Of a stretch of DNA of 64,000 nucleotides, positions 2 through 63,551 are shown piece by piece. A program made the position numbers and the translations under genes. The notes under the pieces are model-generated. The model was given only the letters and a program-made list of their open reading frames with translations. It did no database searches and was not told the origin of the DNA. Each line of letters opens with the position of its first letter. Position 1 is the stretch's first letter. Source of the stretch: Bacteroidales bacterium (lineage in GTDB: Bacteria; Bacteroidota; Bacteroidia; Bacteroidales; WCHB1-69); the NCBI GenBank assembly GCA_031272025.1, contig JAISUP010000008.1, forward strand, positions 654 to 64,653, read 5' to 3'.

Positions 2-346
2 GACCAAATGACACAGGCGGCAAGATCGGGAAAGGTAAACATTGTCGAAGGGTCGGCGCGGGGTTCTACGTCAAAAGAAACGGAAATGAAACTGACAGAT
101 GTAGCGCGGGCAAGTTTGACAGAGTTGATGAGTGATTACGAAGATTGGCTGTTGAGAAATGATTTAGTTCCTTGGCACACGCAATCTGCCGAGGCGAAGG
201 AAGTGTTCGATGTTTGGCTCGATAAGCCCAATTACTCAACCGACTGGATTCACGATTCTTGCGTACATTTGCTGGCTCGAAAACTCACAAGCAAAACTCG
301 CCTGTCTGCCCGAATTGCGGTAAAACGATGGTTATCAGGAAAGTGA
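2..346 (+). CDS. four-helix-bundle protein (23S rRNA intervening-sequence protein family), C-terminal part; the 5-prime end lies outside the window
   Basis: The frame is open from the first base. QAARSGKVNIVEGSARGSTSKETEMKLTDVARASLTEL is the conserved helical core of this family. The last ~30 codons may be out-of-frame read-through (see 226-429). Confidence 0.6.
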   Translation, partial: DQMTQAARSGKVNIVEGSARGSTSKETEMKLTDVARASLTELMSDYEDWLLRNDLVPWHTQSAEAKEVFDVWLDKPNYSTDWIHDSCVHLLARKLTSKTRLSARIAVKRWLSGK

Positions 347-429
347 AATCGGGGAAAAACGAAGGAGCAGAATTTTGGGGCTGCACGGGGTATCCTGAAT
401 GTAAGGGAGTGGTGAATATTGAAAAATAG
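226..429 (+). pseudogene. orphan C4 zinc-ribbon reading frame (topoisomerase-type zinc finger) with no ATG, overlapping the previous CDS out of frame
   Basis: My own translation of the other frame gives ...THKQNSPVCPNCGKTMVIRKVKSGKNEGAEFWGCTGYPECKGVVNIEK*. It carries two Cys pairs (CPNC, CTGYPEC). The only candidate start is a TTG at 259. It is absent from the supplied ORF track. Confidence 0.45.
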
Positions 430-443
430 AAAATTGAAAGAAT

Positions 444-771
444 ATGAATAAACATCCACAAAAATAAAGACACAATACCCGAAATTCAAAAAACAGAAAA
501 CAACTTGCCAAGTACTGAATATTCAACGCTTTTGCGAGATATAATCGGCGATATAAAATCCACGCGGGTTGTTGTTGCGCGCAAAATTAACTCGGCGATG
601 ATGCAACTTTACCGGAATATTGGCAAACGACTGTCGATGGATGTGGCAGAAAAAGGTTACGGCAGCAGCGTGGTTAAATGGCTTTCGGCTGACTTGATAA
701 TTGATTCGGCTTTGGAATTTGGCTGGACACACGATATTTTGCTCCTTTTGGTTATGAATAATGCAGGCTAA
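444..771 (+). pseudogene. DUF1016/YhcG-family (PDDEXK nuclease) N-terminal remnant
   Basis: STLLRDIIGDIKSTRVVVARKINSAMMQLYRNIGKRLS..EKGYGSSVVKWLSADL resembles the N-terminal helical domain of YhcG-like proteins. The ATG at 444 (MNKHPQK*) is in a different frame. The ORF ends after 88 codons and no nuclease domain follows. Confidence 0.5.
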
Positions 772-38906: not shown

Positions 38907-41900
38907 ATGAAAAAGTTCCTATTTGTTATCGCGTTATGGGCGATAGTTCCGGCGGCGGTTTTCGCGCAGTTGTTGGACTCTACGTGGATTTATTATGAGA
39001 ATTTTAACGGGACAACAAGCAAAATTACTACCAGAGTAAAAGAAACCGATGTAACAGGCACCGAAGGTCGCACATGGGCTATAACCCAGCCTGCATGGGC
39101 TGCCAATAAATGTATGCGTGCTTATCACACGAAAGCCAGTGGAGACTACCAAATCGCTTACACCAAGCCGATTCCTTACAACCGGTCTACCCCGTTCACC
39201 TATTTGCAGTTTGATCATATTTGTAAAGTATATGGACTATCCGACGGTGACAATAATCCTGCTTATATTTTGATTCAATTCTCGTCAGATACCAACGCGG
39301 TCAACGCGTGGTCTTCGGAAACGTACCTGATGGGAAATTCGGTATTGTCGTTTAATGCTACTTCCGAAACCTACTTTGGAAATGCCACCACGATATTACA
39401 AGCCACAGCATATTATCCCAGCCTGATCACGTATGCTTCATTTTCAGATAAATCTTACAGCACGTGGGTCAATGGTAGTCCCACTACGATACCTACGGCA
39501 AGTTGGTGGAAAAACGAAACCATTAGAATAGACAACGAGTTACAGCAAGCAGCAGCCAATATCACGTTTTTCAGGGTAGCATTTATTTACTCCGTTTATT
39601 CGCCTACCACTGGCAACAATAATAATATGGCAGGATGGTTCGTGGACAACATCCGGGTTATCAATTCCAATGCCGACATCAACCCGCCCAAGATTACTTT
39701 GCAAAGCCCGTATAAAGTCAATGATCTTAAGCAAGATAGTGTAAATAATTATTACGAGATAAAGGCGTTGATTTCAGATTGGGGCAATGATACCCTTAAC
39801 CTCAATAGCATTTCTTTTAAATACAAGAATGGAAAAAATGCCTCGTGGATTACCTTGCCGGCATACAATTCTACCACTAATCGGACAACAACAGGGCACA
39901 AGGAACATCAATACACCGGGTTTTGGCGTGTTCCCAAACATTGTATCGGGGACACGATTTATTACACGATTTCAGCCACAGACATGCATGGGAACACGGC
40001 TACATTAGATACTAATTTTCGCTTGGTATCCAATTTCACTAATAATGTAACGAGCAATGATGCGTGGATGCGCAAATTTCACGATTTTCCATTTGCCTTA
40101 ACCACGGGGCAGTCTCATCCTGTTAAGGTGTCATTTGCCAACCGTTCCCAAAATCTCATGACTTCTTTGCAAATAGGGTGGAGTCATAACGGGGTGCAGA
40201 AAACTACATACAATTGGACCGCGCCGCCCGCGACTGCCCTTTGCATGGAAGAGCGGGACACGGTAATCTTGGGCAATATCGTGCCTGTAAATGGGCATAA
40301 CTATATCAAAGCATGGGTAATAAAGCGAAACGGGGCAAATGACAACGGCACGTTGAATAACGACACGATTTATGCCGATGTCTATTCTTGCGACAGCGCG
40401 CTCAACGGTACTTATACCGTAGGAGATGCCACCGCAGATTTCCCCACGATAGCCGCCTTAAAAGACAAACTCGCGAATTGTGGTATCGGTGGCAATGTGG
40501 TCATCAATCTCAAACCGGGGACTTATAGCGACTTCACATTCGACCAAACCTATAACGGGCAGTCGCAAGCCCACAGGATTACTTTCCAAGCCGAAAACGG
40601 CAACCGGAATGCCGTTATTATACAAGATAATAGCACTTCAGGAACGGGGGCTATCGTGCTCAACGGGGTGGGTTTTTATACTTTCCACAATCTCACCATT
40701 AAGGGAAAAACAACAGGAACCAGTTCCAGAGGGGTAACCTTTTTAAACAAAGCAACCACATCTTCCGACATCGTGATGAATCAATATATTACCATCTCTA
40801 ATTGCAAAATAGAAGTCAATACTCCGGCAACTCCCGGGACCGCGGATACTTATACTGGCATTTATCGTCTATTGAGCACGGCAAATAAAATAGATCGGCA
40901 TATCACGATCAAAGATAATATCATTACCGGCGGCAACTATGGCATTAACTATAAAGGAACAGGAACCGCCACTTGTCGCAATCAATTAGATGAAGTAACC
41001 GGAAACGAGATTAGCGCGGCAACACTTGGTATCGTGCTTTTTTACGACACAGTGAGCACGGTGTCGCACAACACGATAACACAAATCGGCACCACGGCAG
41101 GTTTTAGAGGTATTGACTTGGAAAATATTTACTTATGTCAGCAAGTTTCGGGAAACACGGTAAAAAACACGTCCACCGCGATTAAGGGCATTTATTTAGC
41201 GACAGTAGCCGGCACATCTTCTCTCCCGCTTAAAGTGGCTAATAATGAAGTAAATATATGTGTATCAGGGAGTTCTCCTACAGGGATAGAATTAGCCAAT
41301 GCCAGTAATAACGTGCAATTGTTGCACAATTCGGTACGGTTGTATGCCACGGCGAACCTAACTTCGCGCAGTGCCGGAGTAAAAACTACCGGAACAGGAA
41401 ACAACCAAATTGTCAATCTGGTTTTAAAAAATAATATCTTAGTTAACGAAGTCAATGGTTCCACCGAAACGTATCATGGTTGTCCGATTGAACTCGCGAA
41501 TCTTACCACTACATCATCTTTAACAGCAGATTATAATTTATTTTACTCTCCCAACGGGGTTGTAGGTTATTATAAGGCAAACCGGTCTTCGTTAGAGCAA
41601 TGGTGTTGGTATGTCAACGCGGACATGCAAGGCGGTAGCGTGGAAGATCATGGCATGGTACGCGACCCCGGTTTTGCTCATACCGACAGTTGCTTAGAAC
41701 TTTCGATATACGATGGATTAGAGGTTCCTATGATACCCGGTATAACCGAGGATATTAGAGGTATACAGAGAAAAACGCTCACCTATTTTGGAGCCTATAC
41801 CATTGTTTTGCCGGATGTGAATATCGCCTTGATAGAATTAGTGTCGCCACTTCCTGCTTCATGCCCGCAAAATACTGCCAATATCACGTTGAAAATAAGA

Positions 41901-44900
41901 AATGTAGGAGGTGAATCCATTAATTTTAACAGCACGACATCCAAACTAACCATACAAGCCGACATTTCGGGTGGTTACGAATTTCACCAGCCCGTTACCG
42001 TTACTACCGGTTCTTTAAATCCATTGGAAACACGAGATGTAATCATCAAGACAAACGCGCCGTTAGGGGTAAACGATCCTATCTATTTTAAGTTTGTCGC
42101 GAGCATCGCGGGCGATACCATCCATAGAAACGACACGTTAGAGCATGTTTTCTTACAAGAAAATGTAATCTTAAATATTACGGCTAATCCCAACGAGTAT
42201 GACCAAACGTTTTCTGCCCCAACCCTCTCGGACCTTTCTCCTGCATGGAAATCCGAACAAATCAGTGGGCTGGGCAATTGGAAAATAGAAAGTGGCACGG
42301 GGAGCAATCCTACCCTTGACCCAACATACGGGGGGGGACGGCTTTTCTTAGATTTAAAGAATTCGTCTCTTACCACCACTAACACTACCTTAGTCCTTTC
42401 GCGCGCCATTATGCCTGCCTTTTCTTTGGTAGGTAGCGAAAATCCTACCTTAAACGTGTGGTTCGCGCACGACAAAGTAGGGACAACCTCTATCGTTTCC
42501 GGTATAGTAGTTAAAGTATCCATTGATGGAGGTAACACGTTTACAGCGTTGAGAGCCACGGAATTTACAAATCAACAAGACACCTTAATCAAACGGTATC
42601 ACGCCTCTTACACTACCGCCGCCTTCAAACGCTATATCTTTAACCTTAACCCGTATATAGGGCAACAATGCGTGATTATTGCTATTGACGGACGCGGACT
42701 CGGCGCGGTAGCCAGCAATAGCAACTTGAATATTGACAGAGTATATATCAATAATGTCCGTTCCGATGATTTTAGTCTTACTGATTTATATTCATGGAGT
42801 GAGGCACCCACTAAAGCCAACATGTCCATGAAAACCAAAGTGCGAGTGGTTAACGTTGGAGCAGAAGAAAAAACGCACGATATCACGCTGAAAGTATCGG
42901 GAGCAAACACGTATACAGAAACCGTGAGCAACGTAACGCTTCCTTTTCTTGGAGAAACGGTTATTAGTTTCAACGGGACACATTTGAATAACAACGGGAA
43001 CAATGTAGTAACCGTGTTCGTGTCTGGCGGCGACAACAACAAGCAAAACGACACGATACGAAAACCTTTGACTACCTATGATTATAGAGTAAATTTCGCG
43101 GACACTTCTACCAATCTCAAAGCCATTGGCGGTACGGCGGGAACCCGTCTCGCGAATCGTTATAACGTGGCAGAAGAAATCATTACCAATGCCGTACGTT
43201 TTTATCCCGTGAGTATCACAGATAATCCTGTGGGGAAAAAAGTATATGCTTTCGTGTCGGATCTCGCGGGTAACGTGATTGCCCAATCCGATACCCTTAC
43301 CCTCACCGCCGGGCATGTGAACACTTGGGTAGAGTTACCCATGAACCAATCCATATTGAGTAACGTGAGCGACTGTTTTTTCGCGGGAATACATCTCATG
43401 GATGCCGGTAATTACATCGGGGCACAAGTGGAGGCACCCATGCGCGATTCGGCATACTATACCTTGGGAACCAATAAACAATATACCCCGCAGGTTAATG
43501 GCAGGGCAATGATTGGGGCAGTAGTAGAAAAAGCCATATTGAACGACATGGCATTACTTTCGTATGTTTCACCGGTATCAAATTGCGACTTGGGACACGA
43601 GAATGTTACATTGAACTTGACTAACTACGGGTCGCAAACCATTCCCGCGGGCACAGTTTTTCACTTGTCGGTCAATAATTCGCACGTAGCACAACAAACC
43701 ATGACTGAGCCTTTGCCTCGTTTGGGGACGACTACATTCACGTTCTCCTACAAACCCGACTTTACCAACACGCAAGTTGGTGTAGACGACAACTATCAGT
43801 TAAAAGTATGGATAGAAAAGTTAACGGCAGACCGTGTTCCCGGCAACGACACGTTAGAATACGATTTTATTTCGCGGGGTAAAGCCAACATGCCCACGGT
43901 TAGTACGCCAATAAACGTACCATATAGTACTTCGGGGACGCTTACGGCAACCTTTCCTCCTGCCATACCTGCAAACAATGGAGTGCTTTCGTGGTACCAA
44001 AATGTGGGCGTGGAGCAATGGCAATTATTGGGACAAGGCAATACATTCCTAACCCCTGAAATTTTGTGGGATACAGCCTATTATGTCAATGTGGCTCAGG
44101 GAGGAATTGATGAAGCCATTTGTGGCACCGGCACCGTCTCAAACTCTTACATGTTTAACCTCATCAATAACTATTCCAAAGCCCGTGCCCTTTACCGTGC
44201 CATAGATTTAGGTAATAAAAATGGCTATGTTGCTAAAATCTTCGTTAACGTGGAATTACCTACTACACCGGTAGAAAACGTGGCTAATATAAAGATATAT
44301 CTTAAAAATACAGACCTGACCGCATTGACTGTACATGCTGTAAGTTCTTGGACAGATGAAATATCGGGTGCCTTATTAGTGTACGATGGTCCGTCTTCGA
44401 TATTTAACAAGGCGGGGTGGAACGAATTGGTATTGCCCGAACTCTTTAAATACACGGGACAAAGTTTGATGATTTTAACAGAGAGCACAGGAACCGTGGG
44501 AACGGCTACCAATATTTGTAAATTTATTTCTACCAATGTAACTAATACGCAGGATTATAGGACTGCCGCAGATGCTTTTAACTCGGCAACCTTTTCAACC
44601 AGCTCTGCCCGTATGAATGTTAAGTTTTCTTTTGCCGATATTTTGTGCCCCAGTGAAAAAGTGCCCATTCAAATTCTTATGACCGGAGCACCTAATTATG
44701 ACTTAGAAACGATGAAATTTTTACCCCCAACAGGTGCTTACGGCAATTACTGTACCTTAGAAAACGAGCATCCCGTCGTTATCTTAAAAAACCGGATGAA
44801 CTCGACTATTCCTGCTAATAAAGTGAAAATTACGGCGATATTTAATGGTACCCCCATTACCTATACCGTGGATAGACCTATTTTAGCGTCTTCTATCGAT

Positions 44901-47900
44901 ACCATTACATTCCCCAATACTTTCGATTTTAAAGCAACCACTGCCGATATTACATGGAATTACACTATTTTTACCGACCTGCTTGGAGAAAGCATTGTTT
45001 TTAGAAATGACGATACGATTAAGGGTAATTTTAAAGCGGAACAAACCGATTGGTTCCCCGATGAAATAGATTCTATCAATCACCCGTTTGCCACAGACTT
45101 TAAATTACAACTACGCGAAACTAACGGGAACTATAACGCGTCACGCAGATATTGGGTATACAATAACCCCGAAGGAACCGGTACCCCCTTAGCCAGCAAC
45201 GTGGCTTCGTTCACTACCCCCGTGCTATATGACGACATTACTTACTGGGTAAAATCTATCAACTTACAAACTGCCGCTCCCCGTTGTAGCACGAAAATGG
45301 TGAAATATACCATACATCTGCTCGCTCCTCAGCACGACTTGAAAGCCGTTTCGTACAATAGCCCGAATAACTACGAATGCGGTTTGACTAATGCCCATTT
45401 TAATGTAGATGTACAAAATACCCGTGTGGGCGTTATTCCCGCTAACACGTTCAAAATCAATGCAAATCTTACAGGGACAAGCACAAAGACAGGCTCTCAA
45501 ACCATTACCGTACCCATTGACAGTTTGGCTACTCACAAGGTAATTTTCAATACAGCAATAGACCTAACCTCACCCACACAAAACAATATATATAACTATG
45601 TCATCACGGTACAGCCTACGGGGAATATGCCCAACGACTATAAAAATAATGATACCCTAACGGGCGTGTTGAAAGTGCCTGCACTACCCAATGCTCCTAC
45701 TCCCATTTCCAGATCTGTAACCTTTGGAAATGAAGAACACATTGTTCCCTCCGAGTCATATCTTAATTATTTCTATTTTTATGATCAAAATGTTGGTGGT
45801 AATGTTATAGGCGAGGGAACTTCTTTTACCACTCCCCCCATTCGTACCAATACCACTTATTACTATTCGGGACGTATTCGGCAACCCGAATTTGCCGCAC
45901 AGCCCATTTGTGGGACAGGAACAACTCAGAATGTTTCTACTTTCAGTTTTACCACGGGAACCAATGCCACGAAATTGGGACAAGCAATACAATTGTATGA
46001 GGCAGCCGAATTAAACGATGGTTACGCGGGATATATAGATACCGTATCTATTCCTATCACGCATATCGCGGGTTCGCCTTTCCCCGTGAAGTTTTATATC
46101 CTTAACGACAGTACTACCTCCCTTGCTACAGCAGGAGCCTATCCTTGGGCAACGCTCGTGTCAAAGGCGACCTTAATTTTTGATGGAGAAACTGATTTTG
46201 GAAATACAGAGAACATTGACGGTATCGCGTGGTTTAAAATGCCCGTGCAAGGAGGTTTCTATTACACGGGACACAATATCTTATTGCTCATCGTACAAGA
46301 TTGTAATGGAGAATCTTGTTACACGATGGTAGGGAATAGCAGCAATACCACCCCGAATTTTAGATGCACGAGCAAAGCCAATTTCGCTGTGAACCGGCTC
46401 AATAGCACCACGGGAACAGAGAATTTTGCTAAGATTACAAACCGGATCAATACTCGATTCTCTTTCACGTACACCTGCCCATCTCCTCGTTCGCCCATCA
46501 CGCTAACCACGGTACAACCCGCTTGCGACCTGCAAGTAGCAAATATCACTGCCCCCATCACCCCGAATGATAATTACAGTACGAGCGAACAAGTAACGGT
46601 ATCTATCAAAAACTGGGGAACAACGGCGGCTTCCAATTTCCCGGTTACTTATTGTTTGGAAGGAAAAACACCGGTAACAGAGACTTACACGAATACGATA
46701 GCCGCGGGAGGAACGGGCATTTTTACCTTCGCTGCCCCCATAGACCTCACAGATATATATTTCCCCGAAAAATTGACGGTGAGCGTAAGATTAGCCTGTG
46801 ATAATATCACCAAAGACGATACCCTGATTTTGGAAGTCCAAAAACCGTCTCCTTGCAAATCGTATCCCTTAGAAGCCGATAAAGCAGATATTTCTAATGT
46901 TACCATTGCCGACCTTAATAATGGTCCGGGACTACCCTTGTTCAACTATAATCCTAACCCCAACAACGGACGTTATACAAACTATACGCAGACAGTGCCC
47001 CCTGTAAACGTGGTGCGGGGACAATCTCACGATTTTTCCATTACCAATTCCTTTACTACCACCGCAGGTTCGTCTATTTATCGCTATATTTACGTAGATT
47101 TAAACCGCGATAACACACTTGCTACCAATGAAAATCTATTTTCATCTACGGCACAAACCCCCACGGCAAACAATGGATACGCCACGATTAGCGGGTCAAT
47201 TTATATCCCGGATACGGCAGCCTTGGGGTTAACTCTAATGCGAATAATCACGGCAAGTACAACACAAACTTCACCCTGCGCGATTTATACCAGCGGGGAA
47301 ACCGAAGATTATGCCATGATTATTCACGAACCATATAACATAGACCCCGGTATTGTAGAAATCGTACACCCTTCAGGCGAGGTATGTCCTGATTCGTCAG
47401 GTAGAGTACGTGTGCGTATCAAAAACCACGGTACCTCTCCCATAACTTTCTCGGAAACCATGCCCATGACCTTAACAGCAACCCTGAGAACAGCCACAGA
47501 CACCGTTTCTTACACACAAGATTATACTTCGGGTACCATCTTGCCGGACGAAACAACCATGTTCGCGGTGGATCATGTCAACTGGCGTAAAGCAGGCACG
47601 TATGCCGTGAGCGTGAGTATGACATACCCCCCGGATGAATACGTGTATAATAATGTTAAATCCGGAACCGTGGCTACCGTGAAGGCGAACACGAAAGTCA
47701 TAGAAATGTCGGACAAGAAAGCCTACGAACGATTTGACTACGAAAAACAATTGTATTCAGGGGAAGAAATTGATGAATTTTTACTTGATACTGCCTTGTG
47801 GACAGCAACGACAACGCCAACCACTGTTACCAACTTTAAGTGGTCGGTATTTATGAGTAAAACCGACAACGCGCCTAACGCGGGACCATTGCACGACCAC

Positions 47901-48953
47901 ACTACCGGTGTACCCTCCAGGGGGATGCCCGAAGGGTGGTTCGCGGCAGTATCGGCACCAAGTAATGCATCGACAACCGCGGTGGCATATCTCACCACTG
48001 CATGTCTAAACCTGCATTATGAAAACGGATACCCCAAAAAAGTATCCTATTGGGAACATATCTATGCCAAAGATACTACCGCGAGCGTGCGCGTAAGAGT
48101 AGAGGTTGGCTCCGGCAATAACTTTATCCCCATAGACGAATTTACCGGTCCTACCCAATCGTATGATACCTCTGCATGGCTCAATCGTTATGTCATGCTC
48201 AACGAATTTGACGAAATTGCAAAGGTGCGTTTCATCGCCGACAAGCATAGCAAAATGATAGATCCCGCCCTCGACGACATTCGTTTTGGTTACGGCTACC
48301 CCGACTTAGGTATAGATTCCATTCTCTTCCCCAAATCATATAAAAACGTATCAAACAGAGATAAAGATTGTATTAGTTACAACGATACCATATATCCCGT
48401 GATACTGATCCATAACTATGGAACAGAAGCAGTATATGAATATGATATACAGGCAAGTGCATCCGTTGGAGATTATGATAACACGATAACCGAACACGTG
48501 AGTCAAGTTCTCATGCCGGGAGATACCATGTATTATACCCTGAAAACAGCGTTAGTGGCTCCATCAAAATACAGTCATTGTGAAATCGTGGTTCGGGTAT
48601 ATACCGACTTTGATGAAAACTCGAAAAATGACGAACAATGGATTATTTCCTGCATTGATGTAGGGGTAGGCGTAGAAGATATTCTCGTGAGAAAAGGGTA
48701 CTCGTTAGGACAAAATATACCTAATCCTGCCAATGGACTTACCCAAATACCATTCTCGCTGCCGGAACCTGGACAGGTTACTTTCCAAATACATACCATA
48801 GAAGGACAAACCTTGTACAACGAAACACAATTTTATAACGGGGGCGAACAAAGATGGAACTATAACACTGCCTCCTTACCATCGGGCATTTATCTCTATA
48901 CCATGCATTGTAAAGACGTGATACTTACCCGAAAAATGGTCGTGGAACGTTAG
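38907..48953 (+). CDS. giant (3,348 aa) mosaic secreted/surface protein, T9SS cargo
   Basis: An uninterrupted 10,047-nt ORF with signal peptide MKKFLFVIALWAIVPAAVFAQ. It carries a beta-helix-like region, repeated CARDB-like modules, a GEVED domain, a MAM-like domain and a type-A T9SS CTD (sub-features below). Confidence 0.85.
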   Translation: MKKFLFVIALWAIVPAAVFAQLLDSTWIYYENFNGTTSKITTRVKETDVTGTEGRTWAITQPAWAANKCMRAYHTKASGDYQIAYTKPIPYNRSTPFTYLQFDHICKVYGLSDGDNNPAYILIQFSSDTNAVNAWSSETYLMGNSVLSFNATSETYFGNATTILQATAYYPSLITYASFSDKSYSTWVNGSPTTIPTASWWKNETIRIDNELQQAAANITFFRVAFIYSVYSPTTGNNNNMAGWFVDNIRVINSNADINPPKITLQSPYKVNDLKQDSVNNYYEIKALISDWGNDTLNLNSISFKYKNGKNASWITLPAYNSTTNRTTTGHKEHQYTGFWRVPKHCIGDTIYYTISATDMHGNTATLDTNFRLVSNFTNNVTSNDAWMRKFHDFPFALTTGQSHPVKVSFANRSQNLMTSLQIGWSHNGVQKTTYNWTAPPATALCMEERDTVILGNIVPVNGHNYIKAWVIKRNGANDNGTLNNDTIYADVYSCDSALNGTYTVGDATADFPTIAALKDKLANCGIGGNVVINLKPGTYSDFTFDQTYNGQSQAHRITFQAENGNRNAVIIQDNSTSGTGAIVLNGVGFYTFHNLTIKGKTTGTSSRGVTFLNKATTSSDIVMNQYITISNCKIEVNTPATPGTADTYTGIYRLLSTANKIDRHITIKDNIITGGNYGINYKGTGTATCRNQLDEVTGNEISAATLGIVLFYDTVSTVSHNTITQIGTTAGFRGIDLENIYLCQQVSGNTVKNTSTAIKGIYLATVAGTSSLPLKVANNEVNICVSGSSPTGIELANASNNVQLLHNSVRLYATANLTSRSAGVKTTGTGNNQIVNLVLKNNILVNEVNGSTETYHGCPIELANLTTTSSLTADYNLFYSPNGVVGYYKANRSSLEQWCWYVNADMQGGSVEDHGMVRDPGFAHTDSCLELSIYDGLEVPMIPGITEDIRGIQRKTLTYFGAYTIVLPDVNIALIELVSPLPASCPQNTANITLKIRNVGGESINFNSTTSKLTIQADISGGYEFHQPVTVTTGSLNPLETRDVIIKTNAPLGVNDPIYFKFVASIAGDTIHRNDTLEHVFLQENVILNITANPNEYDQTFSAPTLSDLSPAWKSEQISGLGNWKIESGTGSNPTLDPTYGGGRLFLDLKNSSLTTTNTTLVLSRAIMPAFSLVGSENPTLNVWFAHDKVGTTSIVSGIVVKVSIDGGNTFTALRATEFTNQQDTLIKRYHASYTTAAFKRYIFNLNPYIGQQCVIIAIDGRGLGAVASNSNLNIDRVYINNVRSDDFSLTDLYSWSEAPTKANMSMKTKVRVVNVGAEEKTHDITLKVSGANTYTETVSNVTLPFLGETVISFNGTHLNNNGNNVVTVFVSGGDNNKQNDTIRKPLTTYDYRVNFADTSTNLKAIGGTAGTRLANRYNVAEEIITNAVRFYPVSITDNPVGKKVYAFVSDLAGNVIAQSDTLTLTAGHVNTWVELPMNQSILSNVSDCFFAGIHLMDAGNYIGAQVEAPMRDSAYYTLGTNKQYTPQVNGRAMIGAVVEKAILNDMALLSYVSPVSNCDLGHENVTLNLTNYGSQTIPAGTVFHLSVNNSHVAQQTMTEPLPRLGTTTFTFSYKPDFTNTQVGVDDNYQLKVWIEKLTADRVPGNDTLEYDFISRGKANMPTVSTPINVPYSTSGTLTATFPPAIPANNGVLSWYQNVGVEQWQLLGQGNTFLTPEILWDTAYYVNVAQGGIDEAICGTGTVSNSYMFNLINNYSKARALYRAIDLGNKNGYVAKIFVNVELPTTPVENVANIKIYLKNTDLTALTVHAVSSWTDEISGALLVYDGPSSIFNKAGWNELVLPELFKYTGQSLMILTESTGTVGTATNICKFISTNVTNTQDYRTAADAFNSATFSTSSARMNVKFSFADILCPSEKVPIQILMTGAPNYDLETMKFLPPTGAYGNYCTLENEHPVVILKNRMNSTIPANKVKITAIFNGTPITYTVDRPILASSIDTITFPNTFDFKATTADITWNYTIFTDLLGESIVFRNDDTIKGNFKAEQTDWFPDEIDSINHPFATDFKLQLRETNGNYNASRRYWVYNNPEGTGTPLASNVASFTTPVLYDDITYWVKSINLQTAAPRCSTKMVKYTIHLLAPQHDLKAVSYNSPNNYECGLTNAHFNVDVQNTRVGVIPANTFKINANLTGTSTKTGSQTITVPIDSLATHKVIFNTAIDLTSPTQNNIYNYVITVQPTGNMPNDYKNNDTLTGVLKVPALPNAPTPISRSVTFGNEEHIVPSESYLNYFYFYDQNVGGNVIGEGTSFTTPPIRTNTTYYYSGRIRQPEFAAQPICGTGTTQNVSTFSFTTGTNATKLGQAIQLYEAAELNDGYAGYIDTVSIPITHIAGSPFPVKFYILNDSTTSLATAGAYPWATLVSKATLIFDGETDFGNTENIDGIAWFKMPVQGGFYYTGHNILLLIVQDCNGESCYTMVGNSSNTTPNFRCTSKANFAVNRLNSTTGTENFAKITNRINTRFSFTYTCPSPRSPITLTTVQPACDLQVANITAPITPNDNYSTSEQVTVSIKNWGTTAASNFPVTYCLEGKTPVTETYTNTIAAGGTGIFTFAAPIDLTDIYFPEKLTVSVRLACDNITKDDTLILEVQKPSPCKSYPLEADKADISNVTIADLNNGPGLPLFNYNPNPNNGRYTNYTQTVPPVNVVRGQSHDFSITNSFTTTAGSSIYRYIYVDLNRDNTLATNENLFSSTAQTPTANNGYATISGSIYIPDTAALGLTLMRIITASTTQTSPCAIYTSGETEDYAMIIHEPYNIDPGIVEIVHPSGEVCPDSSGRVRVRIKNHGTSPITFSETMPMTLTATLRTATDTVSYTQDYTSGTILPDETTMFAVDHVNWRKAGTYAVSVSMTYPPDEYVYNNVKSGTVATVKANTKVIEMSDKKAYERFDYEKQLYSGEEIDEFLLDTALWTATTTPTTVTNFKWSVFMSKTDNAPNAGPLHDHTTGVPSRGMPEGWFAAVSAPSNASTTAVAYLTTACLNLHYENGYPKKVSYWEHIYAKDTTASVRVRVEVGSGNNFIPIDEFTGPTQSYDTSAWLNRYVMLNEFDEIAKVRFIADKHSKMIDPALDDIRFGYGYPDLGIDSILFPKSYKNVSNRDKDCISYNDTIYPVILIHNYGTEAVYEYDIQASASVGDYDNTITEHVSQVLMPGDTMYYTLKTALVAPSKYSHCEIVVRVYTDFDENSKNDEQWIISCIDVGVGVEDILVRKGYSLGQNIPNPANGLTQIPFSLPEPGQVTFQIHTIEGQTLYNETQFYNGGEQRWNYNTASLPSGIYLYTMHCKDVILTRKMVVER
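40401..41600 (+). other. right-handed parallel beta-helix-like region of the giant protein (about aa 499-898)
   Basis: The entry motif LNGTYTVGDATADFPTIAALKDKLANCGIGGNVVINLKPGTYSD is followed by about 20-25-residue repeats rich in N/G/I/T (ITIKDNIITGGNYGINYKG, NNEVNI, LKNNILVN). Confidence 0.5.
44115..44680 (+). other. paralogous Cys-bounded module, copy 1 (about aa 1737-1925)
   Basis: ICGTGTVSNS...ALYRAIDL...IKIYLKNT...LLVYDG...GWNEL...FKYTGQSLMIL...RMNVKFSF..CPSEKVPI. The same ordered motif set appears in copy 2. Confidence 0.5.
45903..46510 (+). other. paralogous Cys-bounded module, copy 2 (about aa 2333-2535)
   Basis: ICGTGTTQNV...IQLYEAAEL...VKFYILND...TLIFDG...AWFKM...FYYTGHNILLL...RINTRFSF..CPSPRSPI. 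Confidence 0.5.
46854..47330 (+). other. GEVED-type domain of the giant protein
   Basis: It ends with SPCAIYTSGETEDYAMII (the GE[VT]EDY signature, G at 47295). Upstream, YVDLNRDNTL corresponds to the WIDWNxDG position of the family. Confidence 0.55.
47835..48296 (+). other. MAM-like domain of the giant protein
   Basis: FKWSV...GPLHDHTTG...GWFAAVSAPSN..TAVAYLTTACLNL...VRFIADK...ALDDIRFGYG follows the usual MAM motif order (DHT.G, then a large-block L.SP-like motif, then a terminal DDI.F). Confidence 0.5.
48672..48950 (+). other. type-A T9SS C-terminal sorting domain of the giant protein
   Basis: GQNIPNPANGLTQIPFSLPEPGQVTFQIHTIEGQTLY...LPSGIYLYTMHCKDVILTRKMVVER, the same architecture as the GH18 tail at 8741-8971. 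Confidence 0.8.
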
Positions 48954-59193: not shown

Positions 59194-60636
59194 ATGTTAT
59201 CAAAATCACAATTTAATGACCGGTTACACGAAGAACTTGGTTTTGTCCCTACTGCCGAGCAAATAGAAACCATGCGTTTGCTTACCGATTTTGTATTTGA
59301 CCATAATCAAAATCAATTATTCATACTTAAAGGTTACGCGGGCACGGGGAAAACTACCACGATTAGTGCATTGGTCAGAACTTTGCGCGTTTGTAGAATA
59401 AAGTCGGTATTGTTGGCACCCACGGGACGGGCGGCAAAAGTTTTTTCCAATTACGCGCGCAAAAAGGCTTTCACTATTCATAAACATATTTATAAAGTAG
59501 AAACCGAAAATGGACAGTCGCGGTTTGCCCGAAAAGAAAACAAATTGAAACATACACTTTTTATCGTAGACGAGGTTTCTATGATTGCTCACACTTCTAC
59601 CGAAGGGACTTTTTTCGCGAGGCAACAATTGCTTTCCGATCTCATGCACTTTGTCTTTGATGGGGAATCGTGCAAATTGCTTTTTATGGGCGATGAGGCG
59701 CAGTTGCCTCCCGTGCATTTGAACTTTAGCCCAGCGTTGGATATCGAGTATCTCAAATGTCAGTTTTATTTGAATGTGGTAGGCTATCAATTGACGGAGG
59801 TAGTGAGACAAGCCTTACATTCAGGCATCTTGTTCAACGCGACGCGTTTGCGCGAAAAAATATCAAACGCGGACGCGACTTTTCCTTTTTTTTCGGGTAA
59901 GATATTTCCTGATTTCAAAAATATCGCGGGTAGCGATGTTGAAGAACTTTATCATACGCTTTACGGGAAACTCGACTGTGATGACATCGTTACCATTACC
60001 CGTAGCAACAAACGTGCCTGTCGTTTCAATATGGAAATCCGACAGCGAATCTTGTTTAGAGAAGACCGAATTGCCGCCGGAGACTATCTCATGATCGTGA
60101 AAAATAATTATTATTGGGTAGATGATCGCTCAGAAGTGGGATTTCTTGCCAACGGGGAAATGATAGAGTTGCTTTCTATACAAAAGACCGAAACCTTGTA
60201 TGGCTTTTGTTTTGCCGATGTAACTGTGCGCTTGTGTGATTATCCCGAACATCCTGACCTGAGCGTGAAGATTCTGTTAGATAGCATAGAAAGCGACACG
60301 CCCGCGCTCTCGCCCGAACAAAACCGGAAACTCTATGATGAAATTGCCTTAGACTATGCAGACATCGCCGACCCGCTATCACGTTTTCTCAAAATCAAGA
60401 ATGACCCGTATTTAAACGCGTTACAAGTGAAATTTGGCTACGCGCTTACTTGTCATAAAACTCAGGGAGGACAATGGCAAAATGTAGTTGTGGATTGCTG
60501 TTTCAGGGACGAGCCTCAGCAGGAAATAGAGACCCTTCGTTGGTTATACACGGCAATTACTCGTGCTTCACGACAAGTATATTTGCTCAATTTTCCCCGG
60601 CGTGCTTTCGAGAGTGAAGGTCTAATAGTGCTCTAA
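59194..60636 (+). CDS. SF1 RecD/Pif1-like ATP-dependent DNA helicase
   Basis: Walker [10 protein letters not shown], Walker [10 protein letters not shown], and the C-terminal [13 protein letters not shown], a UvrD_C_2-type motif. Confidence 0.75.
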
Positions 60637-62113
60637 AATATCCTATGGACTCGCCTATTCCTGAAAATGGATTTTCCATGTTTTTCTCGTGTTCGAGAGA
60701 GCAAACCCCGGCGTACCCGGTTTGTCGCAAGGCTTTTATAAAAGAACGAAAGTCAATAACACCTCGTCCTATTTCCACAGAATAACCTCTTTTGTTGCTG
60801 TCGGTTACGTCTTTGAGGTGGATATCGAAGACCCGGCTACTATATTTTAGTAAATCAGCGGCAGGGTCCTTGCCGTTTCGAGTGTCGTGTCCAATGTCTA
60901 AACACATACCTACACGAGGATCTAAATCTTTGACATGCTTCCACACGTCCTCGGCATCGGGATACTTGTCGGGCATGTCAGGTCCATGTAAATGAATGGC
61001 AAATTTCATGTCATATTCTTTTACTTTTTTATTCACGTAAGGCAAAAGAGAGTGAAGGGGAACCCCTACAATCAATTTTACCCCTACTTTTCTGGCATAT
61101 TCAAAAGCCTGATCTACTTCTTTTTCGCTATTCATATAAATAGGACCTACCCCGTAGCCGATCACGTGGGCACGGGCAAGTTTTGCTTTAAAATGGGCAA
61201 TTTGTGCCTCTGTTGCATCCAATGGAAGATGAAAATTCTTGATACAGAGATAGTGTATGTTCATTTTTTGCATCATGTCGAGCGTAGTCTCTATATCAAA
61301 ATTTACAAAAGTATAACCCGCCATGCCGAGTTTGAAAGTTTCCCTCGTCTCAGGGGGAAGTCTTTCGGCATTTAATTCTTTAATTTTTATGTTTTTAAAA
61401 AATACATTATCGCCATGATCCTGCAAAAGGATATGCCCCGATAGGGCGTTACCAAAGTTTTGGCGGTCTTTGTATTTGCTATGAGCAACGAGCGCGTTAA
61501 ATGCTTGCGTGTTTCGGGTATATTCTACGATTTTTACATCATTGAGAAAATGCTGCACTTTGTTGTCTTGCACCACGATAGTAGCGGTATTAAAGTCGTG
61601 CTCGTTAAAACGATAGTTGGGATTTGACCGGTCTGGGGGGATTAGGTCGTAAAGGGCACCAAGCGTTCTATTGCCGTTCAACCCTTGTTGGGCATCAGGG
61701 TGATTTTTGTCATCAAGAATTTGAAATTCACAGCCAATTGCCGAGCCTTCTCCTTGATTGATGTCCGTATCTACGAAATATTTGATGCCACTGTTTGCCC
61801 CGCGGGTAATCTTAAAGTCTACTTTCAGGATAAAATTTCGGTATTGTTTTAGGGTAACGATATCTCCCCCGTTAGCAGATTCTTTGCCCTCGGCGGCATT
61901 GACATTGAGTATACCATCTTTGATAGTCCATCCCTGAGGCGGGAAATCCGTTAATTTTGCTCCTCGCCAGCCCTCCGTGCTCTTCCCGTCCCACAGCAAT
62001 TGCCAACCATCGATAATTTCTTGTCGCGTGAGCGTGTTGTCCTGCGCGTGAGTGCCTGACAAAAACAGCAAACAAAGACATGCGGTTGCTGTCATTCGTG
62101 ATAAATTTTTCAT
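60587..62113 (-). CDS. exported fusion protein: DUF1080 (3-keto-disaccharide hydrolase-like lectin fold) + xylose-isomerase-like TIM barrel
   Basis: Signal peptide. The N-terminal half has [16 protein letters not shown]...GILNV...[24 protein letters not shown]. The C-terminal half has a sugar-phosphate isomerase/epimerase-like pattern (IHLHG, DIGH, IHLKD, LEHE). Confidence 0.75.
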
Positions 62114-62123
62114 GATTTAAATT

Positions 62124-63551
62124 TTAAAGTTCGTAAAATGTTTCCCAATTTTTTCGCGGGGGTTCTTGCGTGAGCATGGCATTGGCAAAAGCGTTGTTGG
62201 TAATTTGCTTGGTTCTGTTGTCGAAGTAAAGAACTTTGTTAAGTCTTTGTGCAATGACTCCCAGCGAGAAGACCTGACTGAGTGTACCATGAATTTCGAA
62301 GGGGGAACGTGTTTTTTCTTTGCCTTGACAGGCGAGTAAGAAATTGGCGAAGTGATTGGAAGGACTTGTCGGCACTTCGGGCAAGCGCGAAGCCATATCT
62401 TTGGCTTTGTCTTCGGGAATGATAGAAAGTGTGCTCCCGTGCGAGCCTCCTTTAAAAATGAGATCTTTGCTGTAAATAATTTTCCCCGGGTTGAGTGCTT
62501 GTCGGGTTATTTCGCCGGCACCGGAGGGGGGGATGTCGGCGGCTAATTCCGACTGCCCGTATCCTTGTGGCAAAGGCGGCAAATTATCTATCCCGTCATA
62601 CCAGGTTAAGTCAAGCGGGGGCATGTTCTCGCGGGCAGGAAATCGAAACAGCAAGGTAGATGCCATAGGATAGAAATAATCGTTATGTCCGGTCAGTTTC
62701 AATGGATTGATCTCGTAGGGCAATCCTAATTTCAAAAATTCGTGTACCGTATCCACGATGTGCGCCCCCCAGTCACCTAAGGCTCCCATGCCCAAGTCGT
62801 ACCACGACCGCCATTCTCCTTGATGGTATTTTTCGTTGTAGTCGCGATAGGGACGGGTAGTAAGCCATAAATCCCAGTCTAATGTAGTGGGTAAGGGCTG
62901 GCTTTCAGGCAAATGTTTTATGTTCGGGTCCCAGTTGTGCCACCGTCTGTCGTTGTTCATGTGGGCACTCACAGCGGTAACATCTTTGATAATGCCCGCC
63001 TCTAACCATGTCTTAAATTGAAAATAGTTTGCCTCAGAATGTCCCTGATTTCCAACCTGCGTAACGACATGAGGATGTTCGCGTGCGGCTTTCATCATCA
63101 GTTCGGCTTCCCAAAAGGTACGTGCCATGGGTTTTTCCACGTACACGTGTTTTCCCAAAGAAATCGCTAACATGGACACGGGAAAATGCGCGAAGTCGGG
63201 AATAGCTATGCAAACCGCCTCGATAGCATTGCCCATTTTGTCAAACATCTCGCGAAAATCTTTGAAAGTCTTCGCTTCGGGATATTTTTTGAGAATATTG
63301 AGCGTTTGCCGATTTCCTAAATCTACATCGCAAAGAGCAACAATATGGGCTAAACCCGTGCGCTCAAAGTCTTCAATGATTTGCTCGCCCCTGTTGCCAA
63401 TGCCAACACAAGCAAGATTCACCTTTTGTGATGTAACAGGGGATACCGACGGTACTCGTATCGCCTTCGCGCTCGCCGGTACGATGCCTTTGACTAATAA
63501 CCCGGCAGTGGCGGCCCCACTAATTTTTAAAAAATCTCTCCTTGAAATCAT
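62124..63551 (-). CDS. TAT-exported Gfo/Idh/MocA-family oxidoreductase
   Basis: Twin-arginine signal MISRRDFLKISGAATAGLLV, a Rossmann motif VGIGNRG, and EKP (VYVEKPMA). Confidence 0.85.
   Translation of the reverse strand: MISRRDFLKISGAATAGLLVKGIVPASAKAIRVPSVSPVTSQKVNLACVGIGNRGEQIIEDFERTGLAHIVALCDVDLGNRQTLNILKKYPEAKTFKDFREMFDKMGNAIEAVCIAIPDFAHFPVSMLAISLGKHVYVEKPMARTFWEAELMMKAAREHPHVVTQVGNQGHSEANYFQFKTWLEAGIIKDVTAVSAHMNNDRRWHNWDPNIKHLPESQPLPTTLDWDLWLTTRPYRDYNEKYHQGEWRSWYDLGMGALGDWGAHIVDTVHEFLKLGLPYEINPLKLTGHNDYFYPMASTLLFRFPARENMPPLDLTWYDGIDNLPPLPQGYGQSELAADIPPSGAGEITRQALNPGKIIYSKDLIFKGGSHGSTLSIIPEDKAKDMASRLPEVPTSPSNHFANFLLACQGKEKTRSPFEIHGTLSQVFSLGVIAQRLNKVLYFDNRTKQITNNAFANAMLTQEPPRKNWETFYEL

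Follow-up and report, generated by a model that had tools for sequence, protein, structure and literature searches.

Glycosidic bonds are cleaved by oxidation, elimination and hydration in the BT2156-BT2160 system of B. thetaiotaomicron and the AL1-AL5 system of Alistipes (Liu 2021, PMC8121099; Nasseri 2024, bioRxiv 10.1101/2024.03.25.586180 / Nature 631:199). In Agrobacterium tumefaciens, AtOGE (PDB 8BVK) is a Mn2+-dependent 3-keto-O-beta-glucoside beta-eliminase (Bitter et al. 2023, PMC10628242). This enzyme is unfused and acts together with a glycoside 3-dehydrogenase of the FAD type and a second TIM-barrel protein, the hydratase AtHYD, and with no DUF1080 enzyme. The systems DgpA/DgpB-C, for C-glycoside cleavage, and LgdA/LgdB, for levoglucosan, resemble the locus described here in following a Gfo/Idh/MocA C3-oxidase with a xylose-isomerase-like TIM-barrel eliminase/hydratase, but they are cytoplasmic, exchange free NAD(H) and have no DUF1080 component. 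Liou 2020 is reportedly a further source for the BT2156-BT2160/AL1-AL5 system. The pathway type has been known since 2020-2024, and the gene pair analysed here is known chemistry in a new arrangement, with the two downstream enzymes in one protein, and not a new kind of system. It is most likely a compact periplasmic version of this recently described oxidise/eliminate/hydrate route for cleaving sugar linkages.

Within the 64,000-nt window (the whole stretch of Bacteroidales DNA that was analysed), genes A and B are neighbors on the minus strand (Table 1). The ORF list reproduces exactly the limits given in an earlier note on this DNA, which had described two co-directional genes separated by 10 nt. 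Gene A, at the higher coordinates, is the gene that the note called the first. Given their spacing and conserved adjacency, genes A and B are presumably transcribed together. In the region 5' of gene A a combined -33/-7 pattern search gave no match, and a sigma-70 promoter scan does not apply to the host phylum.

Table 1. Features of the gene pair, in window coordinates.
Feature	Position	Strand	Basis
Gene B, secreted DUF1080 + TIM-barrel fusion, 508 aa	60587..62113	-	ORF, Pfam, AlphaFold2
TIM barrel, xylose-isomerase-like (3lmz subfamily), residues 259-499; candidate 3-keto-glycoside beta-eliminase, metal-dependent	60617..61339	-	PDB, alignment
Gene B interdomain linker, short, residues 248-258	61340..61372	-	comparison with unfused relatives, model
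DUF1080 (PF06439) jelly-roll domain, residues 26-247; candidate 3-keto-glycoside 1,2-lyase and 3-keto-2-hydroxyglycal hydratase	61373..62038	-	Pfam, PDB
Gene B Sec-type signal peptide, residues 1-23, cleavage THA/QDN	62045..62113	-	inspection
Intergenic spacer, 10 nt, AATTTAAATC on coding strand	62114..62123	-	ORF limits, sequence
Gene A, 475 aa, Tat-exported Gfo/Idh/MocA oxidoreductase; candidate glycoside 3-dehydrogenase of the AL3/BT2158 type	62124..63551	-	ORF, Pfam, NCBIfam, PDB
Gene A NAD-binding Rossmann domain, residues 45-164	63060..63419	-	PF01408 (GFO_IDH_MocA), 67.5 bits
Gene A Tat signal peptide, residues 1-30, MISRRDFLKISGAATAGLLVKGIVPASAKA	63462..63551	-	Pfam TAT_signal, TIGR01409
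Possible Bacteroidota -7 promoter box TACATTTG (TAnnTTTG), ~50 nt 5' of gene A start codon	63601..63608	-	inspection, weak

The Tat signal and Gfo/Idh/MocA core that the earlier note had read in gene A are both recovered by profile searches. Pfam TAT_signal matches residues 1-19 (MISRRDFLK; 28 bits, cut-off 22.7), TIGR01409 scores above its cut-off, and the RRxF[LIM] motif is present in 41 of 44 orthologs; by inspection, the signal is likely cleaved after AKA. Besides the Rossmann domain the protein contains a GFO_IDH_MocA_C2 domain (58 bits). The top NCBIfam match, over the full length, is BT_2158_fam "glycoside 3-dehydrogenase" (279 bits; IolG 48 bits, levoglucosan dehydrogenase 38 bits), and the top PDB match is AL3 (8tdf/8tdh; 194 bits, ~40% identity as estimated by eye from the alignment), with any other solved structure at 47 bits or less. 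The same ceiling holds for inositol dehydrogenases, GFOR, DgpA (40 bits) and LgdA (28 bits), the last two being only distant relatives. By sequence, gene A therefore groups with the Tat-exported AL3/BT2158 glycoside 3-dehydrogenases and not with inositol or other non-glycoside dehydrogenases; its 279 bits, far under the BT_2158_fam equivalog cut-off of 750, mark it as a paralog, not an ortholog, of the characterised enzymes. The catalytic AL3 residues Gln161, Asp248 and His252, which contact NAD and substrate, align with Q169, D260 and H264 of gene A, none of which varies among the 44 orthologs, and an invariant RRW motif occupies the position of AL3 R192/W195. Tyr349 of AL3, which binds the substrate OH-2, is replaced by an invariant His in the gene A subfamily.

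Gene B carries the two domains that had been proposed to share one chain, with PF06439 covering residues 36-245 as a complete profile (152 bits) and PF01261 matching the barrel (76 bits), whose limits of approximately residues 254-499 come from the model and PDB matches. Its Sec signal, also claimed earlier, is seen by inspection, and the mature N-terminus QDNTLT is conserved among homologs. Public gene callers start the protein at Met7, giving 502 aa. Where gene B has the linker, the frame of unfused relatives ends in a stop codon, and the TIM gene then starts with a signal peptide of its own. The AlphaFold2 model contains two folded domains (mean pLDDT 82), and its pTM of 0.63 establishes no fixed interdomain interface.

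Co-conservation of the two genes is strong. In 10 of 10 independent contexts the dehydrogenase lies immediately 5' of the fusion in the same order and orientation, and the other flanking genes are unrelated; because of this recurrence the pairing exceeds chance. More widely, of 80 species-representative loci, 41 have a gene A ortholog next to the orthologous DUF1080 gene. Most of these orthologous pairs lack a TIM barrel within 8 kb, and the barrel may therefore be accessory. Where TIM partners are free-standing, their genes immediately adjoin the DUF1080 gene and encode a Sec or Tat signal. At least four different fusion arrangements of the two domains exist, and fusion has occurred several times: DUF-TIM, TIM-DUF and DUF-DUF-TIM orders are found, the reverse-order TIM-DUF fusion also adjoins a gene-A-type dehydrogenase, and in Chitinophagaceae DUF1080 is joined to a true BT1/AL1-type lyase barrel. 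By the Rosetta-stone argument, this repeated fusion supports functional coupling of DUF1080 and TIM. For this locus the analysis establishes which domains are present, that both proteins carry export signals, and that the active-site residues and the pairing of the genes are conserved.

The DUF1080 half is closest to the structures 4jqt (330 bits) and 3hbk (227 bits), followed by AL2 (126 bits) and BT2 (118 bits), and Foldseek matches include AL2, BT2 and the "3-keto-glycoside eliminase/hydratase" entries 8rr2/9fbe. At ~35% identity to AL2/BT2 it is a paralog of these enzymes and not an ortholog. All eight active-site channel residues of the secreted BT2157 enzyme are kept, BT2 E103, N134, E164, Q166, Y190, K245, Q273 and H275 being E78, N107, E129, Q131, Y155, K213, Q231 and H233 of gene B; across 34 fusions seven of the eight are invariant and E78 is at least 90% conserved. 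The earlier note had taken DUF1080 to be a hydrolase family, which needs revision: Nasseri et al. (bioRxiv 10.1101/2024.03.25.586180) describe the pathway DUF1080 enzymes as 3-keto-alpha-glycoside lyases and 3-keto-2-hydroxyglucal hydratases instead of hydrolases.

The TIM half, which the earlier note had compared with the partner lyases or isomerases of such pathways, is not of the BT2156/AL1 type: on sequence it belongs to the uncharacterised 3lmz subfamily, with AtOGE its nearest characterised relative, and is a paralog of the characterised enzymes and not an ortholog. Its closest homolog is 3LMZ (P. distasonis "putative sugar isomerase"; 373 bits, 63% identity, TM 0.95), and this structure and the other close relatives 4kw2 and 3p6l are all uncharacterised. 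The match to AtOGE (8bvk, E 1.3e-6) is of low similarity; it scores 31 bits and spans only the beta5-beta8 region. In gene B, H374, D406, H432 and E474 take the places of the AtOGE metal ligands H132, D163, H189 and E233, and H376 that of its catalytic base His134; all five are invariant in 34 fusions. A phmmer search of the TIM half against AL1/BT1 gave no match even at E <= 10; the subfamily profile aligns collinearly with these secreted metal-type barrels over the H-x-H, D and H motifs, with spacing identical to BT1. The BT1 Trp217 position is an invariant His409. With both AL3 Tyr349 and BT1 Trp217 replaced by His, the preferred sugar of the module may therefore differ from glucose.

We consider it probable that genes A and B make up a self-contained module in the periplasm, one that breaks glycosidic bonds through successive oxidation, elimination, hydration and reduction and not through a classical glycosidase mechanism. 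We infer every chemical step, the assignment of steps to the two halves, the NAD recycling and the substrate from homology, the biochemistry of unfused homologs having been published (Liu 2021, PMC8121099; Nasseri 2024, bioRxiv 10.1101/2024.03.25.586180; Bitter 2023, PMC10628242). Gene A would be exported folded through Tat with NAD+ bound and would oxidise the C3 hydroxyl of the non-reducing-end sugar to a ketone, making H-2 more acidic. Gene B would then release the aglycone by 1,2-elimination to leave a 2-hydroxy-3-keto-glycal; with beta-linked substrates the metal-dependent TIM half is the likelier to catalyse this step, with alpha-linked substrates the DUF1080 half. The DUF1080 half would add water to the glycal to give the free 3-keto-sugar, which the NADH form of gene A would reduce to the sugar, restoring NAD+, so that the cycle would be redox-neutral and require no further partner. 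This chemistry, and the periplasmic placing of every component of the set, would be shared with BT2156-BT2160/AL1-AL5. There, however, four enzyme genes and a regulator stand against two genes here, DUF1080 and TIM are separate proteins, and a cytoplasmic second oxidoreductase (BT2159/AL4), a SusR-like regulator and a PUL context are present that the gene pair lacks. The earlier proposal of C3 oxidation of a glycoside followed by cleavage or elimination of the aglycone is thus supported at the level of sequence.

A different division of labor within the same pathway is unlikely. In it the DUF1080 half would perform the elimination, as BT2/AL2-type enzymes already do together with hydration, and the TIM half would be an AtHYD-like 2-hydroxy-3-keto-glycal hydratase or an isomerase/epimerase for the released 3-keto-sugar. 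AtHYD (8ro4) is among the 50 Foldseek matches listed, AtOGE and BT1/AL1 are not among these, and beyond the uncharacterised closest relatives the next structural neighbors are ketose 3-epimerases and UlaE; the many pairs with no nearby barrel also fit. Against this, the barrel sequence that matches AtOGE finds no AtHYD match even at E <= 10, the AtOGE catalytic His and metal ligands are invariant, and a BT1/AL1-type lyase barrel fills the same position in the Chitinophagaceae fusions.

It is very improbable that the pair instead processes periplasmic cyclitols or other polyols that are not glycosides, in the manner of IolG and the TIM-barrel keto-inositol dehydratase IolE, with no glycosidic bond cut. 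IolE (myo-inosose-2 dehydratase) is the top NCBIfam match of the TIM half (48.6 bits) and IolE-like structures occur among the Foldseek matches, but this score and the weak IolG match of gene A are far under the curated cut-offs (290 and 355), BT_2158_fam and AL3 match gene A far better, inositol pathways are cytoplasmic whereas both products here carry export signals, and the invariant BT2157-type active site and universal DUF1080 pairing would be left unexplained.

The B. thetaiotaomicron protein BT3469 (4JQT) has two DUF1080 domains, with a second DUF1080 domain where gene B has its TIM barrel, and its domain 2 is 66% identical to the DUF1080 half; like 3LMZ and 3HBK (a P. distasonis DUF1080 protein), it is an unfused structural-genomics orphan. 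BT3469 adjoins BT_3470, a "dehydrogenase", and the two are probably the counterpart of the gene pair. Although BT_3470 is listed under GH109 in a proteomics paper (PMC12834350), and the DUF1080 fold is GH16-like with one family member an endo-xanthanase/lichenase (PMC9007349), which counts against the module reading, there is little chance that gene A acts by itself as a GH109/GH4-like NAD-dependent glycosidase, with oxidation, elimination, hydration and reduction all in one active site, beside an independent gene B product such as a GH16-like glycanase or carbohydrate-binding protein, given that no GH109 structure is among the best 60 PDB matches of gene A (down to E = 0.023), that AL3/BT3 depend on separate lyases, that gene B lacks the catalytic motif of GH16 and has invariant BT2-type residues, and that the constant adjacency and repeated downstream fusions point to coupling.

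We thus favor the periplasmic cleavage module. Its fusion, thought unusual in the earlier note, is a minority architecture but not a rare one, being common to more than 100 clusters (90% identity), and represents a populous, poorly annotated family. In gene B, fusion would fix the stoichiometry of the two downstream activities, make a single signal peptide sufficient, and set the two active sites next to one another for handling the reactive glycal intermediate.

The window carries, as neighbouring genes, a Tat-signal Gfo/Idh/MocA oxidoreductase (gene A) and a secreted fusion of a DUF1080 domain with a TIM barrel (gene B). The two ORFs are found at exactly the limits reported in the earlier note, adjacent, co-directional and 10 nt apart, and the sole correction concerns the strand, which is minus. 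The twin-arginine signal and Gfo/Idh/MocA core ascribed to gene A are borne out by the Pfam and TIGR01409 matches, and the presence of DUF1080 and a xylose-isomerase-like TIM barrel in a single gene B chain by Pfam PF06439 and PF01261. The Sec signal ascribed to gene B is retained as putative, the N-terminus being Sec-like by inspection.

Positions of the gene pair, its protein features and related features; nucleotide positions refer to the window except where a homologous locus in another genome (L number) is named, and residue numbers to the gene product
Feature	Location	Strand	Evidence or remarks
Gene A	62124..63551	minus	ORF, 475 aa
Spacer between genes A and B	62114..62123	minus	10 nt
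Gene B	60587..62113	minus	ORF, 508 aa
PIF1/RecD-like helicase gene	59194..60636	plus	convergent with gene B
Giant ORF	38907-48953	plus	3348 aa
Gene A Tat signal	residues 1-19		PF10518, 28 bits vs cut-off 22.7
Gene A GFO_IDH_MocA Rossmann domain	residues 45-164		PF01408, 67.5 bits, over cut-off
Gene A GFO_IDH_MocA_C2 domain			PF19051, 58 bits, over cut-off
Gene B putative Sec signal peptide	N-terminus, 23 residues		cleavage before QDN; by inspection
Gene B DUF1080 domain ('3-keto-disaccharide hydrolase')	residues 36-245		PF06439, 152 bits vs cut-off 26.8, full profile 1-187
Gene B xylose-isomerase-like TIM barrel	residues ~254-499		PF01261, 76 bits vs cut-off 31.1; bounds from PDB matches and AlphaFold2
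In-frame stop codons between DUF1080 and TIM genes	L004:7490-7492; L005:8766-8768; L006:8652-8654; L007:8700-8702		
Trio beside gene A orthologs	L032:4910-10208; L085:9496-13246; L089:1-3497		
Chitinophagaceae DUF1080 + BT1/AL1-type barrel fusions	L056:7923-9545; L072:997-2541		

Gene B and the convergent helicase gene overlap by 50 nt at their 3' ends (60587-60636), leaving no space for an intergenic terminator. Upstream of gene A there is an AT-rich spacer of ~150 nt, followed by a divergent gene that is truncated by the window end. About 50 nt ahead of the gene A start codon, a lone TACATTTG fits the Bacteroidota -7 consensus TAnnTTTG by eye, and is a weak candidate for the -7 element of a gene A promoter. 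Searching upstream of gene A with a combined Bacteroidota -33/-7 pattern gave no match, and in this phylum a sigma-70 promoter scan carries no information. Beside the gene pair there is no SusC/D pair, transporter or regulator; tblastn of the 64-kb window detected no second Gfo paralog, no ApbE and no additional DUF1080 or TIM gene, and the only Rfam elements are two tRNAs at ~27.4 kb. This absence of PUL or regulator context suggests that the gene pair functions as a stand-alone unit, which is possibly constitutive. Elsewhere the window encodes a giant ORF.

The product of gene A most closely resembles known glycoside 3-dehydrogenases. Its top NCBIfam model, matched over the full length, is NF058561 (BT_2158_fam, 'glycoside 3-dehydrogenase') at 279 bits; since the equivalog cut-off of this model is 750 bits, we place gene A as a member of the BT_2158_fam clade and not as an equivalog. 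The closest solved structure is AL3 (8tdf/8tdh), the periplasmic glycoside 3-dehydrogenase of Alistipes, at 194 bits, while no other PDB match exceeds 47 bits (DgpA 40, inositol dehydrogenases at most 34, LgdA 28, GFOR 26). AL3 residues Gln161, Asp248 and His252 correspond to Q169, D260 and H264 of gene A, all invariant in an alignment of 44 orthologs, and a further invariant motif, RRW (residues 202-204), falls in the gap-ambiguous loop bearing AL3 Arg192 and Trp195. The position of AL3 Tyr349, a residue that binds the substrate OH-2, is occupied in gene A by His371, again invariant across the 44 orthologs. The Tat motif SRRDFLK (N-terminus MISRRDFLK) scores 18.4 bits with TIGR01409 against a cut-off of 16.7, and RRxF[LIM] is present in 41 of the 44 orthologs.

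Two other identities can be set aside. That gene A is a self-sufficient glycosidase of family GH109 is rejected on similarity; no entry named as an alpha-N-acetylgalactosaminidase occurs among its 60 best PDB matches (down to E = 0.023), and the GH109 label of BT_3470 ('dehydrogenase') comes solely from a table in PMC12834350. A periplasmic cyclitol pathway of the IolG/IolE type is rejected on the scores of both components (IolG 48 vs 355 bits, IolE 48.6 vs 290).

The DUF1080 half of gene B has as its top structural matches two uncharacterised structural-genomics proteins, 4jqt (the second domain of BT3469) at 330 bits and 3hbk at 227 bits, compared with 126 bits and 118 bits for the characterised DUF1080 enzymes AL2 of Alistipes and BT2157 (BT2) of B. 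thetaiotaomicron. The BT2157 channel residues E103, N134, E164, Q166, Y190, K245, Q273 and H275 correspond to gene B E78, N107, E129, Q131, Y155, K213, Q231 and H233, in a mapping run via the AL2 alignment that takes AL2 and BT2 residue spacing as equal. Seven of these eight residues are invariant among 34 fusions, and the eighth, E78, has a conservation of at least 90%. Gene B has no match to the catalytic motif of GH16, E-[ILV]-D-[IVAF]-[VILMF]0-1-E, and a GH16-like hydrolase role for this half is therefore rejected; the point is relevant as one DUF1080 member is an endo-xanthanase/lichenase (PMC9007349). BT3469 (PDB 4jqt) is an ortholog of the DUF1080 half with 66% identity, and BT3469/BT3470 are likely the B. 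thetaiotaomicron counterpart of the window pair. Our literature search found these two proteins only in proteomics tables, which label BT_3469 as KEGG K26288 'alpha-3'-ketoglucosidase', and returned no functional work on either.

The AlphaFold2 model of gene B (mean pLDDT 82, pTM 0.63) has the alternating strands and helices of a barrel in the TIM half. This half matches the orphan structure 3lmz at 373 bits, with a Foldseek TM of 0.95, and we assign it to the uncharacterised 3lmz/4kw2/3p6l subfamily. Among characterised proteins its closest relative is AtOGE (8BVK; E 1.3e-6, 31 bits, over ~105 residues only), an A. tumefaciens enzyme that acts as a Mn2+-dependent 3-keto-O-beta-glucoside beta-eliminase (PMC10628242). 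In gene B, H374, D406, H432 and E474 align with the metal ligands of AtOGE (His132, Asp163, His189 and Glu233), and H376 with its catalytic base His134; all five gene B residues are invariant in the 34 fusions. The H-x-H / D / H spacing of the TIM half also matches His182/His184/Asp214/His240 of the B. thetaiotaomicron lyase BT2156 (BT1), and the subfamily profile aligns with BT1/AL1 fragments in a collinear, weak manner (14-19 bits, in a five-sequence target set). A BT2156/AL1-type identity of the TIM half is rejected, as phmmer against the PDB gives no such match even at E <= 10, and the link to these lyases comes from motifs, spacing and weak profile alignment only. BT1 Trp217 is replaced in the 3lmz-type barrel by an invariant His.

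Conservation of the gene pair could be followed in ten independent contexts (the window and the homologous loci L001-L003, L082-L084 and L088-L090), in all of which a Gfo gene of 474-505 aa, mostly 475 aa, lies directly upstream of the fusion on the same strand. The co-occurrence of dehydrogenase and fusion that the earlier note proposed to survey therefore holds. The remaining neighbours are unrelated among the ten contexts (ribosomal proteins, GroEL, YidC, an efflux pump, DnaG and others), and we detected no synteny between the genes around the pair in the window and those of other loci, so the gene pair recurs in different neighbourhoods. The closest fused homologs (L001-L003, L082 and related) come from MAG or single-cell assemblies named Pcl387, Im510, FACS... 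and AGMMS..., names that hint at datasets from termite or cockroach guts; one termite-gut paper contains the name 'Pcl387'. The window organism stems from Logan run SRR14710912.

In a wider set, the 80 best-scoring species-representative loci, 41 have a gene A ortholog (58-80% identity) next to the orthologous DUF1080 gene, on its upstream side; they come from Bacteroides, Prevotella, Alistipes, Dysgonomonas, Flavobacterium and Parapedobacter, and 21 of these 41 have a double DUF1080 (BT3469-like). The TIM barrel is fused in L001-L003, encoded separately and directly after the DUF1080 gene in L004-L007, and directly before it in L008, L009 and L066; none was found within the 8-kb flanks of the remaining loci. 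Where the separate TIM gene follows the DUF1080 gene it has its own export signal, of the Sec/lipoprotein type in L004 and Tat in L005-L007. These four loci represent four distant lineages, and in every one of them the DUF1080 gene and the TIM gene after it share one reading frame with a single stop between them; in L004 the next ATG comes right after the stop. We reject a pseudogene or read-through explanation, since the TIM genes all have start codons of their own and a Sec or Tat signal. The arrangement is one mutation short of a fusion.

Beside gene A orthologs we also observed a recurring trio of genes: a second Gfo/Idh/MocA paralog of about 420-430 aa that shares 25-28% identity with gene A, an ORF of 79-81 aa (L085/L086, L089) and an ApbE-family FMN transferase. 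One possible role for the trio is re-oxidation of the NAD-bound dehydrogenase, as its redox partner in the periplasm. All three members are absent from the 64-kb window.

The earlier note called the fusion unusual, which is true in that it is a minority architecture, but the architecture has a wide distribution and has formed several times. The window-type arrangement is common to more than 100 clusters at 90% identity, with 53-73% identity, under the annotations 'sugar phosphate isomerase/epimerase', 'hypothetical protein' or 'DUF1080 domain-containing protein'. The reverse order, TIM-DUF1080, occurs in the relatives P0105, P0109, P0116 and P0119, and P0116, whose TIM half shares 43% identity with that of the window, has a gene-A-type dehydrogenase directly downstream. 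DUF-DUF-TIM fusions of about 700 aa also exist. In Chitinophagaceae, DUF1080 is fused to a true BT1/AL1-type barrel (8tct 84 bits, 8tcs 72, 8tcd 72, AtOGE 54), which is an independent joining of the same two activities with a barrel of a different subfamily. The TIM subfamily itself has 118 representatives at E <= 1e-30 in a 50%-identity library, most of them free-standing proteins of ~280-300 aa, a length that could accommodate an N-terminal signal; multi-domain proteins account for about 10 of the 150 best relatives. A Pfam scan of nine multi-domain relatives and a 411-aa match identified DUF1080, GH88, GH31/melibiase-like, glucuronoyl-esterase-like and extra barrel copies as partners, with non-DUF1080 partners or arrays of two or three barrels in P0122, P0124, P0151, P0185, P0222 and P0237. 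This variety suggests that the subfamily has wider roles in carbohydrate breakdown. No triple fusion including a dehydrogenase was present in the ten proteins checked among the best 150 TIM-half relatives.

The best model for the function of the pair is provided by BT2156-2158 of B. thetaiotaomicron and AL1-3 of Alistipes. In these systems BT2158/AL3 oxidises C3 with a tightly bound NAD (PMC8121099; bioRxiv 10.1101/2024.03.25.586180), the Co2+-containing TIM barrel BT2156/AL1 eliminates beta-aglycones, and the DUF1080 protein BT2157/AL2 carries out both alpha-aglycone elimination and 2-hydroxy-3-keto-glucal hydration; AL3-NADH is recycled probably via reduction of the 3-ketoglucose product (bioRxiv 10.1101/2024.03.25.586180). 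The window system would work in the same way, with genes A and B forming a self-contained, redox-neutral, two-polypeptide periplasmic glycoside-cleaving module in which gene B joins the lyase and hydratase functions. It differs in that each of its parts is a paralog, two of the enzymes are fused, the barrel comes from another subfamily and the accessory genes are missing. The suggestion in the earlier note that the pair may oxidise a glycoside at C3 in the periplasm and then cleave or eliminate the aglycone is supported by every computational test available. Direct support extends to the domains, the export signals, the conservation of the active sites and of the gene pair, and the repeated fusion, and from the comparison with BT2156-2158 and AL1-3 we infer every chemical step, the split between the two halves, the recycling of NAD and the substrate.

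The invariant Tyr-to-His exchange in gene A and Trp-to-His exchange in the barrel suggest a sugar preference that may differ from that of the BT2156-58 system. On the basis of the same two residues, His for the OH-2-binding Tyr349 of AL3 and His for BT1 Trp217, it is conceivable, and we put this forward tentatively, that gene A, the 4jqt-type DUF1080 and the 3lmz-type TIM barrel make up a distinct, uncharacterised branch of the 3-keto pathway that has a sugar specificity of its own. If so, the 3lmz-type barrel would be a new class of periplasmic 3-keto-glycoside lyase, the window pair would be the smallest natural self-recycling, broad-specificity glycosidase of its type, and a function would be assigned to BT3469/BT3470, 3LMZ, 3HBK, 4JQT, 4KW2 and 3P6L.

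Oxidation-elimination-hydration was recognised only recently as an alternative to the classical glycosidases; it acts on alpha-, beta- and thio-glycosides and on pseudo-glycosides, with substrates including glucosinolates and acarbose. The window pair represents known chemistry, with nothing chemically new. We found no description of a DUF1080 + TIM fusion in the literature searched; the preprint of Nasseri et al. does not mention fusions, and its authors foresee 'varied architectures' (bioRxiv 10.1101/2024.03.25.586180). The repeated, independent fusion of DUF1080 with two different TIM subfamilies is comparative evidence for interchangeable modules, as those authors proposed. A natural two-polypeptide version with fused lyase and hydratase would be the simplest to reconstitute, crystallise or engineer, and the reading of the pair as a 3-keto-glycoside module offers a testable function for a large, poorly annotated family, for several orphan crystal structures and for BT3469/BT3470 of a model gut bacterium.
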